64,000 bases of DNA from Octopus vulgaris (GCA_951406725.2 OX597817.1:83700001-83764000), one strand, 5' to 3'. Counted from the first letter of the stretch, positions 12,032-59,037 are shown. The notes: generated from the letters alone by a model not told the origin. Translations and numbers: made by a program.

Positions 12032-15000
12032 CATTATCATCATCATTTAGCATCCGCTTTCCATGCTAGCATGGGTTGGACGGTTCAACTGGGGTCTGGG
12101 AGGCCAGAAGGCTGCACCAGGCCCAGTCTGATCTGGCAATGTTTCTATGGCTGGATGCCCTTCCTAACGCCAACCACGGTTGGATGGTGCTTTTTACGTG
12201 CCACCGGCACAGGGGCCAGGTGTGGCTGGCAGCGGCCACAATAGGATGGTGCTTTTTACGTGCCAATGGCACGGGGACCAGGTGAGGCTGGCAACAGCCA
12301 CGTTTGGATGGTTCGCTTATGTGCCACCGGCACTGGTATCACAGCTACAATTTCCATTGATGTTGATCGATTTCGATTTTGATTCTGATTCTCACTTGTC
12401 TCAACAGGTCTTCACAAGTAGAGTTTTGTGTCCCAAGAAGGAAAGGTATGCATAAGTGGACTGGCTACATCCCAGGTAGAGGTCATGGGTTATGGTCTCA
12501 CTTGTCCTGCCGGGTCTTCTCACGCACAGCATACTTCCATAGGTCTTAGTCTCTAGTCATTTCCTTAGTGAGACCTAAAGTTCAAAGGTCGTGCTTCACC
12601 AACTCGTCCCAGGTTTTTCTGGGTCTACCTCTTCCACAGGTTCCCTCAACCACTAGAGTGTGGCACTTTTTCACACAACTATCTTCATCCATTTTCGTCA
12701 CATGACCATACCAGCACAAACGTCTCTCTTGCACACCACGACTGATGCTTCTTAGGTCCAACTTTTCTCTCAAGGTACTTACACTCTGTCGAGTACGAAC
12801 ACTGACATTACACATCCAACGGAGAATACTGGCTTCATTTCTTGCAAGCTTACGCATATCCTCAGCAGTCACGGCCCATGTTTCACTACCATGTAGCATG
12901 GCCGTTCGTACACATGCATCATACAGTCTGCCTTTTACTCTGAGCAAGAGGCCTTTTGTCACCAGCAGAGGTAAGAGTTCTCTGAACTTTGCCCAGGCTA
13001 TTCTTACTCTAACAGTTACACTTCCAGCACACCCACCCCCGCTACTGACTTGGTCACCAAGGTAACGGAAGCTATCAACTATTTCTAGCTTTTCTCCCTG
13101 GAATGTGGTGGAAGTTGGTCTCTGCACATTTTCAGTGTTTATTGCTCCTGAGCATCTGCCACATACAAAAACTATTTTCCTAGTTAGCCTTCCTTTGATA
13201 TTGCTGCACCTCTTATGTGTCCATAGCTTACCCTTGGTGCATCTTATAGAGTTTCTACCTACACCTTTTCTACAGATCGAGCAGGGCCATCTACCTGAAG
13301 GCGTGTGTGATTTGTCTACCTTCCTACTTATTAGGACTTTGGTTTTAGCTAGGTTGACTCTAAGGCCCTTCGATTCTAATCCTTGCTTCCACACCTGAAA
13401 CTTCTCCTCCAGTTCTGATAGTGACTCAGCAATTAGAGCAAGGTCATCAGCATAGAGGAGCTCCCAGGAGCATCCTGTCTTGAATTCCTCCGTTATTGCC
13501 TGGAGGGCTATGATAAATAGGAGGGGGCTGAGGACTGAACCTTGGTGGACTCCAACCTCTACCCGGAATTCTTCACTGTACTCATTGCCAACCCTCACCT
13601 TACTAGCAGCATCCCTGTACATGGCTTGCACAGCTCTCACTAGCCATTCATCTATCCCTAGTTTCCTCATTGACCACCAGATAAGGGATCGGAGGACCCT
13701 GTCGAAGGCTTTCTCCATGTCAACAAAAGCCAGGTACAGGGGCTTATCTTTGGCTAGGTATTTCTCCTGCAGCTGTCTTACCAGGAATATTGCATCAGTA
13801 GCACTTTTCCCTGGCACAAACCCAAACTGCATCTCATCTAAACTAATTCTCTCTCTAATTAGTTGGGCTATGACCCTCTCTGTAACATTCATTACCTGAT
13901 CCAACAGCTTGATACCTCTGTAATTATTTGTATCTAGGGCGTCACCTTTACCTTTGTTGCAGTTGACTAGTATGCTGCTACACCAGTCATTGGGAATGAC
14001 TCCTTCGTGTATCACCTGGCTAACTATACGGGTGACTAGGTTATAGCCAACACTACCAGATATTTTGAGCATCTCTGCAGTAATTCCTGATGGGCCTGGG
14101 GCTTTCCCTGTCTACATGCTTCTAATTGCCTTAACTACCAAGGAACTGTCAACTCGGATAGCTGGTCCCTCTGTTGGGTCGACAATCGGCAGACTCTCTT
14201 TATCCCGTTCATTTTCTTTATTCAGCAACCTTTCATAGTGGCGTCTCCAAACCTCTCTCTTTGCATCCTCATTTAGCGCAAGTGAACCATCATCCATGCG
14301 AACACATTTCTCTCCTACCACATCATGATTCTCTCTCACACACTGTCTTGCAACACAAAATACCTCAAGTCTTTCATCCTCACGGCGCAGAACATTGGCA
14401 AATTTTTTCTTATCTACTTCCCTGCTACCACGTTCTTCCAGTCTTTCCAAGCTTGTTTCTTTTGTCTAATAACCCTGTCAACAATATTGTTCCACCACCA
14501 CGTTATTTTGGGTCTTGAGGGGACTTTGCACCAACCACAGATCTGGTCAGTGGCTCTCAGCAGGTTGTCCCTTAGAGACCTCCAGTTGTCTTCTACCCCA
14601 TGTGAAGCTATATCCCCTTCTATTTCGTCAAAGGCTTCAAGTAAAATGTCTCTAAAGCTCTGTCCATTCGCAGGATCTTTAAGTTTCCAGACCCTTCTTC
14701 TCCATCTTGGTCGTCTTCTGGTCATCCTCTTAGTCCTGATCCTAAAGTCACTAACTACCAGTCTATGTTGTGGGGTACATTCTTCGCCTGGGAAGGTTTT
14801 GGCATTTATAAGCAGCCATCTTTCCCTTTTTCTGGCAAGGATGTCGGCCCGATTGGTAGGTGACTAAGTGGCTGGTAGGTTTCCTGAAGTTAGTGTTGCA
14901 AACCATAAGACTATTCGCATCGCCGAACTCCAGCAGCCTGGTTCCCTCCTCGTTGCGAGAACTATAACCGTAGACTCCATGTATGCCATGGAAGCCCCCC

Positions 15001-15500
15001 AGCATGTAGTCCAACATGCCCATTGAAGTCACCAGCCACAAAGAGAAGGTCCCTGTCGTTCGTCAATGAGGTAGTCTGCAGTAGGGTGTCATAGAATCGG
15101 TCTTTCTGTCCATCGGGCAGTCTTGGCTGAGGGGCATAGGCCGATATGATGGTTGCTAATCCATGATGAAGCACTAATCTAATCTTAAGTATTCTGTCGC
15201 ATACTCTGACTACTTCAATTACCTTATCTACCCATTTTTCAGCGAGAAGTATACCCACGCCCCCGACCCCGTCAGTGTTCCCAGCCCAGAAAATCTTGTA
15301 CCTGTGTTCTTTGCCTGTGAGGAACCTAGCAGAACCTCCTCTCCACCTCACTTCTTGAATGCAGCACATATCAACATACCTCCTTTCAAGCAACTCAACA
15401 ATCTCGCCAGACCTACCTTTCAGTGTGTCAACATTGAGAGTGCCAACCCTGAGGGTGTGGGGAGTATAGGCCCTATGCACCTTGGGACGGGGGACAGTAG
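12032..15500 (-). mobile_element. Near-full-length RTE-clade LINE (APE endonuclease + RT), disabled; 3' UTR with subrepeats and (GAT)n tail; flanked by (TA)n
   Basis: EN motifs GTLNV, IQEVRW, AGDFNGH; RT motifs FVDMEKAFD, GVHQGSVLSP, LYADD, YLG; C-terminal GRGRPRKTW. Frameshifts near 15000, 14840 and 14430; stops at 14112 and 12582. Confidence 0.93.
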
Positions 15501-15556
15501 CTTATATATATATAAAAGGATAGAAAAATCTTAAAATTTCAAACAAATTTATTTTA

Positions 15557-26399: not shown

Positions 26400-28259
26400 T
26401 AAAAACAAGCACCCATTACTTCATATCCATACTTCCAGTATAGTAACCAGTGAAGGTTTTGCACTACCTTGTCGTCTGCGTATGTACTCTTTCTGTGCAC
26501 AGCTTTCACAAGCACTAACAATGTGAGTCATGCTTTTGACCTTCTTCCCACACATTCTGCAGAGGTTCGTAGAACTTGTGTGGTATATATCTCTTTTCAC
26601 TGAGTTGGTATTCAATGCCTGATCTGGGGCAGCAATGATTAGGCTTTCAGTCTTCTTTTTTAGGTTACCCTTGCTGAGCTACCTCTAGGATGCTTCTGGG
26701 TCTTTTAAGTTGTTAGTTTTACAGTGGAACTGACCATGTAATACCATGCAGAATAGAGTTTTTTCTCTTACATTGGCTGTTTGTGTTTGGAATTCATTAG
26801 CACTCTCAAGTCCATTTTTGGTAAATCCTTCTGCATTAGCAACATAGTGTAGCAGGTCTTGTTTGCTGTTTACCAAATATTCTGCCATGTTTCTTCTTTC
26901 ACTGTTGATGCACTACCATATTCTAATCAGCCCACCGTTACACCCCTTCATGTAGAGCCTGTGTATGTTCGCCTATTCATTGCCATCGTCATTCAGGTAG
27001 TGCAGTCGAGTTGGTTGATCCCCACTCATGTCCATTTCAGGATGGGTACACTGTAGCGGACTACAGCAACAACCCATATGTTGATGGCAGTCCCCAGGTA
27101 CTTTGAGTTCAGTTTTGATTTCAAGAGAAGTTTGAGGTGCTTCAAATATACAGTGATTACCTTGTCTTTCATTTCTCTGTGCAAGATATTGTCCTGCTTC
27201 AGGATCCCAAAGTACTTGTACCCATCATCATATGGGTCTTCCACTCACTCTCTGTTTGGGAATTCTACGCCCTTACAATCTCCTCTTTTACCTCATTTCA
27301 AAGTGAGCACTGCAAACTTCAAGATACCGAATTCCATCACTATATCCTTGATGCACATCTGTACAGTCTCAACCAGCCTCTCCATTTCAGGCTCTGTTTT
27401 TGCGAACAGTTTTAAATCATCCATGAAGAGAAGGTGGTTGAGATGAGATCCATTCTTTCTCAGCTTATAGTGCACATTGACTTTGCTTAGGACTACAGAA
27501 AGTAGGATCAAGGCTATAACAAATAAGAAACGTTAACAAGAGTCTCCTTGGAAGATACCACTTTTGATTGTTACCTCAACTAAGTGCTTGTTGTTACAGA
27601 AAAGATGTGTTTTCCAACTAGGCATACTGTTCTTAATCAGTGCACATATGTTCTCAGCTATTCCACATATGTCGAGTGTTTCCAAAATCCACGAATGCAG
27701 CAACATGTTATAAGCCTTTCTAAAGTCTGTCCAGGCCATGTACAAATTTTTTTGGTACCATTTGGATCCTTTCCAGCATCCCTTTTGCTCTACCAGAAGT
27801 AGATTGTATTCTGCAAGGAACGTATGTATTTTCTCTGTGAGGATGCCTATTAATATTCTCCATAAGAGGTTAAGGCAAGCAATGGGTCGATAATTGCCAA
27901 CCTCATTGCCCTTTGATCTTTCATCAACAATGTTGTCTTTCTCTCCAGAACTGCACCACTCTGTAGGCAATTGTCTAACTGCAATGCAGTTCACTTGTGT
28001 GTTGACCTAAACCACATGAGCTGTTGCCTTGATTTCTGTCTGGTCCTGCTGCTTTCCAGTTTGGCAATTTTGATACCTGTGCAATTACATCTTCCATTGT
28101 TATGCGCACATGGTCCTGTCATGGAGCCTCCAGATGATGGAGTTTGGATCTCATATTATCGTCTTTATCTCATGCTCAGCCCTTAAAAAACTGCCTCTGG
28201 TTGTTTGAGAATAACCTGTTTTGCTGGAGCTGCGATATGTGATCAGTGTAACATTGCAC

Positions 28260-30543: not shown

Positions 30544-31279
30544 AGCATTAACAAAAGTTAAAATACTTGTTGAAGTTTTTTTTATGGAATCCATGACCCA
30601 AAACTCAGAATAAAGTCATAAAGTTTCTCAAAATTAGAAAAAAGAAATGAATTTTGCCTTTCAATTCCCTTGCAATAACAACAATACCAATTTATAATTA
30701 GTAGTTTAGATTTCAGGTTCAGTTCCACTGCATGGTACCTTATGTAGGTCTTTTCTACTATAGCCACAGGCCAACCAAAGCTTTGTGAGCATATTTGATC
30801 GACACAAACTGAAATAAACCTTATATATATATTCCAAGAAAGTTAAAGGTTGTGAATCCAACCAGCTCAGGGATAATATCTATCCAATATACTACTGGTA
30901 GAATACCCAATTATTAATACACAAGTGTTTTTTATTGCATTGCAATTACATTACCGAGTGTACTAAATGGGTGAGGGTAAAGAGATATTTTACCATTAAT
31001 TTATAGAGCAATAAGAAAATGGAGGGGAGCAATAGGTGGTTCATCAACTTTCAGACATTATATTGTGTCAACTTATTTATTTATTTGCTAAAATGACAAT
31101 TACAAGAATAAACATATATGTATAACATATTATGCGTTACATATAAAATATATTAATATATAAAGATACCAGTAATTATTAAAATATAACATACAGGAAT
31201 ATAAATTGGGAAAATAACTTACAGCTGTTTCAGCCAAGAGGCAAAAATATCTCATTCTACCTTTATTCCTCCAGTAGAG

Positions 31280-31738
31280 TATGCTCAAGTCTACTGTCAG
31301 CAATTAGAGCGTTTGAACGAAGCTTTGAAGAAAAAAAGACCCGCTTTAGTGAATCGAAAAGGAGTGATGTTTCATCAGAACAATGCACAACCCCACACTG
31401 CAAAGATCACATCACAGAAGATCAAAGAACTTGTTTGGGAAAAAACACCTAATCTACCTTATTCTTCTGACCTTGCTCCTTCAGACTACCATTTGTTTCA
31501 TACTTTACAGAATCATTTGGGGTACATAACTTTCACAAGCCAGAAGGAGGTCGAAATTGACATTTGAGAGTTTTTCGCTTTGAAACCAAAAGAGTTTTAC
31601 ATTGATGGGATTAAAAAGCTTGTAAATAGTTGGAAGGAAGTCATAGATAATCAGGGAAAGTATATTAGTGATTAGATTTCAATTAAATATAGCATTTGAT
31701 CACTTGCTTTCTTTATTCAAAATTTGGATAGAACTTAT

Positions 31739-41594: not shown

Positions 41595-42661
41595 CCCTTT
41601 CGTTACCAAACTGCCCGAAAAAAATTTTGGTTAATGTGACCAAGCCGCTCAAAACCGCCCAAATTTACCTATTCATATTTAAATGAGAATATCAGAGCAA
41701 ATCTCTTTAGTACATTCGTGAAAACACGTATTATACTTCGTAAAGAGTTCAACTACAGTTTTGTACAAAAATCGAAGTGTAATTTTAATTCTGTGAATTT
41801 TGGGAGATTTTTTTCCGAAATTTGTTCCTATTGTGTTTTCAAAATTTGTAATTCTGACATAAAATGGATACGAATTTCATTATATCAAGCAGCGAGTCAG
41901 AATTCGAAGGATTTTCTACTGAAGACCTTCATAAATCTAACTCTATGACTGAAAAAAAAAAGCATGTGGTATTTGATAATGAATCTGATGTTTCATTTTC
42001 CGAAAGTGAAAACAGTGAATCCGAGAGCTCCGACAGCGATAAAGAAAATGAATTGGCACCTGAATGGAGTGAAAATTTAAAAACTGTGTCTTTCGGTGAT
42101 TTTTCTGAAGAAACTGGACCAAGCCACAGACTTTCCCAGAAGAGTAAAGCCTTAGACTATTTCTTTTTACTTTTTCGAATGAGCCTATTTGAAATCATTA
42201 CGGCGGAAACGAACCGTTACGCTAAATGTAAACAAAACGAAAGAAAGTGGTTTCCCATAACCTTAAATGAAATTAAGACTATTTTGCCATAAATATTATT
42301 ATGGGTATCAGAAAGTTACCCAGAATAACAAATTCTATCGTAAAATTTTGTTGTATACCCAATTGAATATTAGCTAATAACCTATTTTCTATAACGATGT
42401 TTGAACAAAATTTTAATAATTTTATATTTTGTGGAATTTACCTGTATCTACCTGCAATTAGAGACACTTTGTGACAAAAATTATAGTAAAGAATTGGTTG
42501 AGAACATTTCATTAAATTATCTTCCAAAATTCACGTTAATATATTGATAAATAAAAAAGTTATAGTAGTTTAATGAAACCAGACTAAATTTATGATTACG
42601 TTAGAAATTAATTGAAACACATAAGGGGTGTATTTTGGTCAGAAATATAGTAACTAAAGGG
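41595..42661 (+). mobile_element. Internally deleted piggyBac element retaining the transposase N-terminus
   Basis: TTAA|CCCTTTCGTTAC...GTAACTAAAGGG|TTAA; ORF 41864-42292 has an acidic N-terminus and DYFFLLF..IITAETNRYA..WFPITLNEIK. Confidence 0.88.
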
Positions 42662-55383: not shown

Positions 55384-58049
55384 GTGAGTTATTTCTCTTG
55401 ATTATTCAACCCTAAAATAAAATATAAAGAAGATAATTTTCAATATGTGTGCACACACACACACACACACACACATATACATATTTCATTCAAGTTTAAT
55501 ATTCACTTTCCATCCTTGGAAAGAATTTATTTACCTGTTTCAAGTAAGATATGTCTCCATGATTAGATATGTTTTCACAGTATATTGGAAATGAACGACA
55601 CTGCTTGTTTGATAATGACAATCATTACAAGTACACATGAAGTCGAGACTAGGAAACATGCACACACACACACTTATATACATACATGTGTGTGTGTGCC
55701 ATGTAAATTATTCAAGTGGTGCCACATAAAAGAAGCCCATGTGGTGCTATGTAAAAGCACCAATGTAGTTCCAAATAAAAGTGCCTGTGTGGTGCCACTT
55801 AAATGTGCCCATACAGTGCCACATAAAAGCACCCAGCACACTCTGTAAAGCGGTTGGTGTTTGGAAGGGCAACCAGCCATAGAAACTATGCCGAATCAGA
55901 CTGGTGTCTGGTGCAGTTCCCAAGTTTAGATCAAAACCATCCAACCCATGGCAGCATGGACAATAGACATTCAGTGCTGATGATATATGATAGGCTTCTA
56001 TCAGATCCACTCATAAAGCTTTGGTTTGCTGAAAGTATAGTTGAAAGCACTTGCCCAAGATGCCATGCCGTGAGACTGAACCCAGAACCATGTGGTTGGG
56101 AAACAAACTTATCATTGTTTTAATTTACTACTTTTACATGCAAATGCATGGAAAAGTGGTTTGAGTGGAATTTGTTGAAGCAAATTTTCTACAGCTAGAT
56201 GCCTCTCCTACTTGTTTACAAGCAATATAATGTTTTCCCGTAACTGGACATGTTTATATGGAAGATTGGGAACAAATGACATCGCTTGTGTGACCATCAC
56301 AGAATATCAAGACAGGGAGACATAGAAACACTCATGCGCACACACATGCACTCATATATACATACACACATATGTGCACACACACATAATGCGTGTTCTT
56401 TCCTTTTAGTCTTTCTTTGAAAACACATCTGGTTATGAGAAAATGTTGCCTTACTTGGAAACAGGTGAGGGTTGGTGACAGGGAGGGCATGCAACTAAAA
56501 GCCTGCTTTTACTAATTCTGTCCAACCTATGCAAGCATAGAGAAATGGATATTAAAATGCTAGGCTTCTTTCAGTTTCCATCCACCAAACTCACCTACAA
56601 GGCTTTTCAGCTGACTGCTATGGTAGAAGACACTTTCACAAGGTGATACTTAGTTGGCCGAAATCAAATCCATGTGACTGAGAAGCACAAATCTTAACCA
56701 CAGTGCTTATGTGTGTGTGTGTATTCTATCTGATTGCTTGAAGCTTCATGATATCCAATTTGAAAGCAAGATTGTTTGATAACATCAACTAACCAATACA
56801 TTGATGAGCACAGAGATAGCATTTAACTTTCAGCAAAGTGTAATACTTAGCCGAATAATGCTTTAGAGATTGATAAATAAAATTCTATTATGCCAACCTT
56901 GTTATTATGTTTCTTACTAATGATGCCTAAACTTAGTGATGACTGTGTTACTATTATTGAATTAGTTACAGCTAGTAGTTTAGCTGATACTGCCATTAAT
57001 CTTTTAGTGCAGTTTTCTTACCAGCTGTTGTTGATTTAGCTAGATTTTAACCACATTTAGGTATGTATGGTTGTGTGGTTAAAAAGCTTGCTTCCCAACT
57101 GTATGGTTTTAGGTTCAGTTCCACTGCATGGCACCTTAGGGAAGTGTCTTCTTTTATAGTTTCAAGGCAACCAAAGCCTTACAAGTCGATTTGGCAGATA
57201 TGGAAACTGAAAGAAGCTCATCGTATATGTGTGTGTGTGAGAGAAAGAGAGAAAGAAAGAGAGGGAGACATAAAGTGTCCTTGTCATGACATTGCTTGTT
57301 GATTTTAAATGTCATAATGAGCTATTTCATTTGATTCCACTCTTCTGAAATATTACTTGTCTGGAAACATGTGAGTTGGCAACAGGAAATTCACATGGCC
57401 ATAGAAATCCTGCTTTGATAAATCCTATCTCACCAATAGTTGGCATAGAAAAATAAATGTGAAAATGAGGGTTTAGATCTAGAAACTATGTTGCCTTTAT
57501 GTCCCTTAAATACAATATTAGCTTTGCATTTTTATAAAGATCTCTATTTTGTCATCAATTTTAGGTTTCACTATTTTGTCTAAACCTTCCCTGTTAACCT
57601 TTAGTATTCAGATTACTTTGTCAAATACAATGTTTGTTTATTTATTTTGTTTTCAGTTAATCATGTATTATCTTGTATTTTAGAGATCTCAGTGACGTGA
57701 TAGCTTAGTTTTAGAATGGCATTGTAGGTTTGAAGTGAGAAGCCAAATCTGGCCAGTTTCAACATAAATCAGGTTAAATATTTCAGATGGCCATAGCCAA
57801 TTTGGATGCTGAAAGGTTAATGTTGCAATAGATTTGTATAACTTTGTGTTGTTATTGATCAGTTGTTGATGTAGACAACAGCCTACATCTAAAGAATTTA
57901 AGTTTTATCAGAGAATTCCCGCTTGGTTATTTTGAGATTCAAACACTTAACTGTTTCTATGCCATATTTCTTTTGAAATACATTACTTACATTTCAAGTA
58001 ATTTTGGAAAAAAAAAAATTGATGAATTTATTAAAATAACTTTGTCATT

Positions 58050-58195
58050 TACATTATTTACATTCGATGGATATTTGTCCTCATCTTGTTTGTTGTTAGC
58101 ACAACATTTCGGCTGATATACCCTCCAACCTTCATCAGGCATATGGCATAGTGGTTCAGAGCACAGGCTAATAACCCCAAGATTCCAAGCTGTGA

Positions 58196-58236
<41 letters not shown>

Positions 58237-58418
58237 TCGAAAAATACCTTAAGAATGAGAACTCAGGTTCAAAATTTCCCCAAGACACCTGATGAAGGCT
58301 GGAGGGTATATCAGTCAAAACATTGTGTTAACAACAAACAAGATGAGGACAAATATCCGTCGAATGTGAATAATGTAAATAAAGTACATAATTTCCTCAT
58401 CTCTTAAATATAGAACTG
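58050..58418 (+). mobile_element. Composite retroposon: inverted partial repeat + tRNA-like head + (AAT)n + hammerhead-like tail
   Basis: About 58050-58139 mirrored at 58288-58380; 12-bp TSD AACTTTGTCATT at 58038-58049 and 58419-58430. Confidence 0.72.
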
Positions 58419-59037
58419 AACTTTGTCATTGTCATTGTGAAGCTGGTGTTTGGAACATAAATAAACATGAAATTTTGGTGGGAGGATTTTGTTTAGATCT
58501 CTTTAAAACTGAAAGTTTGCATCATAGAGCCAGAGGCTGTCTTAGATGTGTTAGTATTAAAGAGTTGACCTTTTCTTACCATATTCCGTTTGAAATACAC
58601 AGTCTTTGTTTCAATTAATTTTGAAAATAATAAAGAATTTAGTAAAATAATTTTGCCATTATTGAACTAAAGTTTGAAGACTAGCTAAGCGGGTTTAAGT
58701 TATGTTACAAGAAATGTAACTAACATTGTTTTACCTGTCTTTATTTACCTCTTTCATTCCTTATATTCTTAGATTTTTATTCACATTTTTAACAACATCA
58801 GTTACTAAACCATGAGTTGTGTGGTGATAAACTTTAAATAGACATGAAAATTTGATGAAAGGTTTTAATTTGGGTCAGGAATTTTTCATATCTTAAAACC
58901 AAGGGTGACCTCAGGCAGGTTGGTATCAATAAGCCTAAAATGGCTAGTCTAGTTGAAAATAAAGAGAGTGAGGGGAGAGAGGATGAAAAAGGAGTAGGAG
59001 GAGTGTGTTTATACTTATATATGTTTTATCACTACAG

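Follow-up and report, generated by a model that had tools for sequence, protein, structure and literature searches.

A decayed Poseidon-type pseudo-LTR in Octopus vulgaris with a tRNA-Arg-like segment as its probable internal Pol III promoter

In a stretch of 64,000 nucleotides from Octopus vulgaris (GCA_951406725.2 OX597817.1:83700001-83764000, here called the window), AACTTTGTCATT is found at 58038-58049 and again at 58419-58430, and brackets a 369-bp insert as a 12-bp target duplication. Judged by its sequence, this insert is almost certainly a decayed, two-armed short copy of the pseudo-long terminal repeat (pLTR) of a Penelope-like element (PLE) of the Penelope/Poseidon type. I propose, with a probability of roughly 0.65, that the tRNA-Arg-derived segment with which the pLTR of this family begins acts as an internal RNA polymerase III (Pol III) promoter, and that the RNA of the element accordingly starts some 6 nt ahead of the tRNA-like part.

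The insert and the element it comes from

Positions within the repeat are counted from the first G of the tRNA-like segment (+1), and the parts of the window copy are as follows.

58038..58049, plus strand: left target-site duplication (12 bp), the final ATT of which could equally be read as the beginning of the inverted arm
58050..58139, minus strand: inverted partial pLTR, from about +241 back to +149, without the 3' tail
58138..58199, plus strand: tRNA-Arg-like segment, the start of the pLTR, with a 2-nt overlap (GG) with the inverted arm
58144-58154, plus strand: A box, within the tRNA-Arg-like segment
58200..58235, plus strand: (AAT)12 tract, of a length that varies between copies and with frequent later insertions
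58255..58257, plus strand: ATG, putative start of the reverse transcriptase (RT)-endonuclease open reading frame (ORF) when the repeat is the 5' end of a full element
58284..58329, plus strand: minimal type I hammerhead, predicted cut after 58324
58390..58418, plus strand: Penelope-type "tail", on this arm only, ending at the distal copy end (+269)
58419..58430, plus strand: right target-site duplication (12 bp)

The inverted-repeat arms overlap 58050-58139 and 58288-58380, and the minus strand of 58047-58139 matches the family repeat at 93.5%. The B box, kept in family copies, is absent from the window copy, where 12 nt that contained it have been deleted between two repeats of TTCC, past position 58186. 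CpG and transition damage has hit the hammerhead in both arms and left an intact core in neither: in 58284..58329 CpG decay has removed G12 and the palindrome, and in 58050..58139 stem I is truncated. The first-pass annotation of the window had recorded the insert with its 12-bp direct repeats, an inverted arm of about 90 bp, a tRNA-like part with an A box and a deleted B box, and an (AAT)n tract, all of which are present, and its opinion that this copy is inactive agrees with the decay and the damaged ribozymes of both arms. It had also taken the insert for a separate, non-autonomous chimera of a short interspersed element (SINE) and a retrozyme; this does not stand, as the tRNA-like segment is an integral part of the pLTR of the autonomous element itself and follows the stop codon of the ORF at a distance of 27 nt.

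The insert belongs to a family and is not a chance arrangement, because the tail 24-mer has 5,924 exact matches in the genome and its reversed control has none. About 20,000 family arms are estimated in the genome, and a DNA search gave 135 matches from the 40 scored of 6,242 candidates. Three samples were drawn. Two of them each come from the first 100 loci of a listing: 70 tail-anchored loci, in position order, and 90 head-anchored loci (seven already in the tail sample, two second arms and one other being left out). The third comprises 70 of 74 copies with a junction from pLTR to ORF. Family copies are about 91% identical to the majority sequence, with a non-CpG divergence of 4-5%. Contigs from four runs labelled as organisms B-E contain the family, bridge the junction between ORF and head and have their ends at the same positions. 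The hammerhead tail is kept at 74 of the 90 head-anchored loci, so that head and tail do co-occur, and the 16 tail-less loci are cut or interrupted, mostly within the AAT tract. An independent SINE consisting of the head only was also considered, but none was seen, as every one of the 90 head loci goes on into the sequence typical of the family.

The repeat leads directly to its element. Six of the 70 tail-anchored loci run 167-657 nt upstream into a reading frame, which stops 27 nt before the tRNA-like segment, and at loci bearing the endonuclease the stop codon is followed by the tRNA-like segment in 30/30 examined (of 40 scored; two represent one duplicated insertion), with at least one promoter box kept at 29 of these 30. 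A search with the 5' part of the frame found the same repeat directly before the ORF, with the tRNA-like head included once (L185). The majority sequence is a 2,632-nt monomer. Its frame has a putative start at an ATG within the repeat, 70 nt ahead of where the hammerhead is predicted to cut, placed there because the frame is open from within the pLTR into the RT. The frame holds an RT domain (RVT_1, E 5.5e-10, L175) and a C-terminal endonuclease that is 38% identical to a protein annotated with PF01541 (GIY-YIG; E 1e-26), although the Pfam GIY-YIG profile does not match the endonuclease piece of L093; in one genomic copy (L286) RT and endonuclease stand in a single frame of 569 aa. The translations show a CCHH motif and no CX2-5CxxC linker, a combination that marks Penelope/Poseidon among the PLEs (PMC8557442), and the element is accordingly assigned to this type, the placement in the Poseidon clade being drawn from motifs. 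The layout of the element is [tRNA-like, (AAT)n, ATG, hammerhead, tail]-ORF-[same repeat], so that the proposed match of the tail to the pLTR of an RT and GIY-YIG element is borne out, and there is hardly any doubt that the whole unit is the pLTR of an autonomous Poseidon-type element. A sister Poseidon family was sought with a distant protein, and all 30 loci examined were of the same family.

The tRNA-like segment and the 5' ends of copies

Among six isotypes sampled, the tRNA-like segment aligns best with the tRNA-Arg(TCT) and tRNA-Arg(TCG) genes of the same genome, slightly better than with the other SINE heads found in the loci. Its acceptor and T stems are broken, though the A and B boxes of the family lie at tRNA spacing and fully match the consensus, in line with the Pol III promoter boxes that had been suggested. 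Pol III promoters of type 2 place the RNA 5' end shortly upstream of the A box, and the 5' ends of the copies appear to lie a short way upstream of this box.

The copy number drops steeply at this very place. Exact CpG-free 20-mers number 5,148 at +30, 929 at -27 and 848 at -185, and after correction by the exact-match rates in the loci at hand (23/82, 23/54 and 26/54, respectively) approximately 18,000, 2,200 and 1,800 arms are obtained, an 8-fold step within 60 nt compared to a 1.2-fold one across the next 160 nt upstream. Past -20, 19 of the 90 head-anchored loci continue. Out of 76 copies at risk, 48 end in the 16 nt from +8 to -8, and 56 do so once eight fold-backs over-extended by the aligner are reassigned; the end rate is 0.046 per nt there, versus 0.007 downstream and 0.004 upstream. 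The same pattern is observed in copies without an adjacent inversion or fold-back, 14 of 28 of which end there (0.031 vs. 0.005 per nt on either side), and none of these copies has a native-sequence end at -9 to -19. Most junction copies stop 13-460 nt into the ORF, which suggests that their cDNA started near the 5' end of a long RNA, and the junctions would agree with an RNA that begins at G(-6), the cDNA of which could fold back without a flap. I consider it quite probable that a Pol III promoter defines this 5' end, if the cis and the SINE-like routes are taken together. RNase P processing of a tRNA-like fold was considered as another source of the 5' end, but is unlikely because the cloverleaf is broken and several copies with unique flanks keep -2 to -4.

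Pol III can reportedly make functional mRNA, to go by the title of a paper from 1995, and TTTT is its terminator. The sense strand of the 2,632-nt family majority sequence has 0 TTTT, where 3.5 are expected by codon shuffle (P 0.015), 4.4-4.6 by base shuffle (P 0.011-0.012), 2.9 by synonymous shuffle (P 0.027) and 2.5 by a first-order model (P about 0.08). As controls, a long interspersed element (LINE) in the window, which I take to be RTE-like, has 5 (6.2 expected), and two copies of the second PLE family described below have 7 and 6 (3.1 and 3.5 expected). Removal of one TTTT from a reporter ORF raised the full-length RNA and protein obtained from Pol III promoters (PMC8223928).

Alternatively, the tRNA-like fragment may be a passenger, captured in the 3' untranslated region and without a role as promoter, in which case the missing TTTT would be due to chance and the pile-up of ends would be a fold-back artefact of the cDNA at the TGCCC-AC-GGGCA hairpin, or a coincident Pol II start. 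The hairpin is indeed located exactly at the boundary, 18 of the 90 head-anchored copies end at -7 with fold-back sequence, and the loose read ends at the boundary base, in RNA as well as DNA runs, also carry fold-back sequence. In addition, characterised PLEs use an internal promoter and an intron in the pLTR (PMC8557442), and the P value for TTTT can be 0.08. However, the excess of ends persists in the copies without inversion or fold-back, the hairpin is weak (about -2.5 kcal/mol as DNA), a similar one of 5 bp near +120 poses no barrier to copy ends, and both boxes are perfect although the stems have decayed. I regard this explanation as distinctly improbable.

Insertion, hammerhead and short copies

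The 3' ends of the copies cluster at +225-250 (41/70) and +258-269 (29/70), about 122-130 and 154 nt after the ATG, with a tail of about 25-32 nt. In 66 two-armed insertions, a few of which are segmental duplicates, the distal tail is present on exactly one arm 56 times, on both arms twice and on neither eight times, an excess of single tails with respect to independence (P 2e-9). An inverted, 5'-truncated copy and a tail of 30-40 bp at one end are typical of Penelope/Poseidon elements; here an adjacent inverted arm is found at 51 of the 90 head-anchored loci. Of the 66 two-armed insertions, 40 are flanked by repeats 11-18 nt long that differ at no more than one position, though shorter ones may be chance. 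No tandem ORF-pLTR-ORF arrangement was seen in 70 junction copies, and a simple-repeat 3' tail is not a feature of the family, the copies at 70 loci ending at two fixed sites. Penelope-like insertions carry a tail at one end (PMC8557442), and the Poseidon protein of the anole cuts and extends both DNA strands, with two internal start sites for cDNA, one of them 111-118 nt from the beginning of the ORF; its insertion in vitro proceeds without hammerhead cleavage, and its minimal template requires ORF sequence beyond the start sites (PMC11167929). The geometry of the arms is consistent with Penelope insertion, as the inverted partial pLTR had led the first-pass annotation to suppose, and the internal starts, the priming of both strands and the one tail per insertion provide genomic support for the mechanism observed in vitro.

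The hammerhead of the family has a stem I of 5 bp, CUGAUGA, an extra A, a stem II of 6 bp, GAAA and an AACGUU palindrome. This majority form fits the minimal type I hammerhead, with the palindrome replacing stem III, that had been proposed for the window, and it equals the core that had been restored there by reversing CpG decay; 42 of 179 ungapped arms carry it fully intact. The sole frequent non-CpG variant of the core is at N7 (T 139, A 36, C 4 of 179, with C common in organism E), a free position which is also a third codon position, and stem covariation was not seen in this single family, which has no subfamily-level stem changes. The Rfam scans called no hammerhead or HDV family. Compared with shuffles, the stem II fold has a z of -2.0 in a good copy and of -0.6 and -0.1 in the window arms, the arm at -0.6 folding no better than shuffles. 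Metazoan PLE hammerheads of the minimal kind cleave weakly and solely as dimers (PMC4209133). The predicted cut is at +185 and the copy ends are at about +240 and +269, and because neither end is at the cut, self-cleavage does not define the copies; no peak of read ends at the cut site was present in RNA-seq libraries of the mRNA type.

A retrozyme-like cycle, in which a Pol III RNA is cut by its own hammerhead, closes into a circle and serves as the template of a non-autonomous unit, could account for the well-formed minimal hammerhead and for a core that varies frequently, outside CpG, at the free N7 only. However, N7 is also a third codon position, the copy ends are off the cut site, the copies are dispersed head-to-head pairs and form no tandem arrays, and the anole hammerhead is dispensable for insertion in vitro (PMC11167929), and I give this cycle next to no credit.

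About one in six arms has small, varied deletions in GTTGTGTT (+181 to +190), spanning the palindrome and the cut site, which are either slippage or a scar of cleavage and repair. A deletion at the palindrome looked more frequent in ORF-linked copies, but this enrichment vanished in an unbiased sample (4/20 vs. 30/181).

A comparison of 87 ORF-linked with 148 head-start arms, which mixes search-selected and unbiased loci, shows that both share three linked subfamily markers, and a short-specific substitution was not found in 944 tests. The top differences between short and ORF-linked copies are recurrent deletions, which are gone in an unbiased sample, and the N7-A allele is present in 34 of 118 short and 8 of 66 ORF-linked copies (P 0.01, uncorrected). 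The shared alleles do not agree with the separate non-autonomous family that had been assumed, nor is the head, as would be expected of a SINE, absent from the partner, as it sits in the partner's pLTR.

One could still suppose that Pol II transcribes the element as usual, and that solo pLTRs are the source of short RNAs, which Pol III starts at the tRNA-like segment and ends at TTTT in the flank, and which are retroposed in trans, as a Penelope-dependent SINE that never diverged from its partner. This would give the same pile-up at the head, the same 8-fold excess and the same intact boxes; N7-A is somewhat commoner in short copies, and Pol III transcripts are normally short (PMC10886601). 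However, none of the 944 tests gave a substitution specific to the short copies, many copies have cDNA starts 13-460 nt inside the ORF, beyond the pLTR, which require an RNA that spans the 5' junction of pLTR and ORF, the absence of TTTT from the ORF would be left unexplained, and the anole template needs ORF sequence beyond the start sites (PMC11167929). Such a SINE seems fairly unlikely to me.

If instead the promoter serves the element itself, as I prefer to think, Pol III would start at about G(-6) and, without TTTT, could read through the ORF. The element protein would nick both strands about 12 bp apart at AT-rich sites, as the copy ends and the in-vitro work on the anole suggest, and cDNA would start internally in the RNA, at +269 for one strand and at about +240 for the second. 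If the 3' repeat is used, this would result in ORF-bearing, 5'-truncated copies, and starts in the 5' repeat would run off the RNA 5' end after about 250-270 nt and could produce the approximately 8-fold excess of SINE-looking copies. Microhomology, or fold-back at the hairpin GCCC-AC-GGGC of the RNA 5' end, may then bring about the head-to-head joining of the two cDNAs. The hammerhead, inside the ORF start, might have a regulatory role that depends on a dimer or on protein, and copying would not need it. Transcription of the whole ORF by Pol III can be put forward only tentatively, with the odds somewhat against it. The same reserve applies to the full scenario, in which an autonomous element swapped Pol II for a captured tRNA-derived promoter, purged TTTT from its 2.6-kb ORF and was translated uncapped, the 20,000 SINE-like copies being run-off cDNAs that map the start site.

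Several observations weigh against the promoter and its suggested role. ARAGORN makes no call in the window, nor in the family head at normal thresholds, and Rfam finds a tRNA at just 14.5 bits in one copy (L010) and none in six other loci. A natural hairpin lies right at the boundary of the pile-up, and fold-backs make up many of the junctions. That 0/70 copies which cross the pLTR into the ORF extend upstream of -8 does speak for the proposed RNA 5' end, but just 7 of these 70 reach the head, and 0/7 is weak alone. The deficit of TTTT is modest and rests on one family consensus, the search for a sister family having given none. Translation would have to proceed on an uncapped Pol III mRNA of 2.6 kb, in which the first in-frame ATG after the predicted hammerhead cut is preceded by five ATGs that are out of frame. 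A full intact ORF is present in none of 69 scored copies, and because of this and the identity of about 91% to the majority sequence the family looks inactive in this genome. Finally, three RNA-seq runs from organism A, of each of which about 6% was read, contain thousands of family reads at equal depth on both strands, but no start or end peaks. These reads are mostly 90-95% alike or less and about 70% run into unique flanks; they are passive read-through of old copies and say nothing on Pol III.

Related systems and neighbouring elements

The octopus element resembles PAc of Anolis carolinensis, whose single ORF, with RT and C-terminal GIY-YIG, likewise opens within the pLTR, ahead of the hammerhead cut. 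In both, the copies have two ends, separated by about 30 nt and located 120-155 nt into the ORF, which define the tail; both strands are extended and the targets are AT-rich (PMC11167929). In contrast to PAc, the octopus pLTR starts with a tRNA-derived A/B-box segment and (AAT)n, and the family has a sharp RNA 5' boundary at that segment, no sense TTTT and no tandem ORF-pLTR-ORF in 70 junction copies. Its predicted ribozyme does not differ in sequence from the minimal hammerheads of metazoan PLEs, with CUGANGA, an unpaired base before G10.1-C11.1, a long stem II, a short stem I and a palindrome that replaces stem III (PMC4209133). A Pol III promoter derived from a small RNA within the terminal repeat is also known from the TRIMp3 elements Cassandra, Helenus and Ajax; these are non-autonomous LTR elements, whereas the promoter-like segment of the octopus is in an autonomous, protein-coding PLE, and the autonomous partners of TRIMp3 are argued to need Pol II (PMC10886601). 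With tRNA-derived SINEs the short copies have in common an A/B-box head, a length below 300 nt, tens of thousands of copies and a 3' part shared with an RT-encoding partner, but here the head is also in the partner, there is no simple-repeat 3' tail and insertions are inverted and two-armed (PMC3531059). Animal non-LTR retrozymes likewise carry a type I hammerhead in a short PLE-related repeat, but are tandem, non-coding units that run from cleavage to cleavage (PMC7229834; bioRxiv 10.64898/2026.07.22.740005). The octopus family, unlike these, is dispersed, has a minimal hammerhead and is physically within a coding element. Schistosoma Sm-alpha pairs tRNA-like boxes with a hammerhead.

The prevailing view is that autonomous retrotransposons belong to Pol II and that Pol III is left to short non-coding passengers (PMC3531059, PMC10886601). 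If confirmed, a promoter of the tRNA type inside the terminal repeat of a Penelope element would break this split: the promoter would renew itself and make tandem insertion unnecessary, a single element would comprise promoter, LINE-like partner and "SINE", and one route would be shown for a SINE-like family to arise straight from its partner. Repeats of this kind are liable to be annotated wrongly as SINEs. A literature search found neither a tRNA-derived promoter in a PLE pLTR nor a Penelope-dependent SINE, and Repbase, Dfam or SINEBase may hold the repeat under another label. Ohshima and Okada reportedly described three octopus families of tRNA-derived SINEs in 1994, which may likewise include the repeat.

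Locus L318 contains a cluster of tRNA-Cys genes with variants, and ARAGORN takes one of these for Ser(ACT). In many copies of the repeat the (AAT)n tract is broken by the ends of another non-LTR element (L025, L029, L066, L073, L090 and L096, and also L099, L100, L110, L114 and L120), which presumably belongs with the microsatellite-targeting R4/Dong retrotransposons. A second PLE family, of the Neptune type and with a CxxC linker (L037, L042, L049), has many intact ORFs of 781 aa and is likely young. This abundant family, found with the Pfam GIY-YIG profile, is not the partner of the repeat, to which 30 loci gave no match. The 3' region of the Neptune-type family has tandem repeats with TGATGACGT motifs, and at L042:2955-3030, on the minus strand, there is a canonical type I hammerhead that has all three stems, including a real stem III, and a predicted fold competent as a monomer, about 1.2 kb downstream of the Neptune-type ORF and on the opposite strand to it.

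The window itself contains, at 12582-15501 on the minus strand, the near-complete LINE that was used as a control, with an APE-type endonuclease and an RT (Pfam Exo_endo_phos, RVT_1). Weak Pfam matches point to a fragment of another RT at 27533-28006 (minus strand), a mariner-like transposase fragment at 31205-31567 (plus strand) and a piggyBac/IS4-like transposase fragment at 41858-42292 (plus strand).

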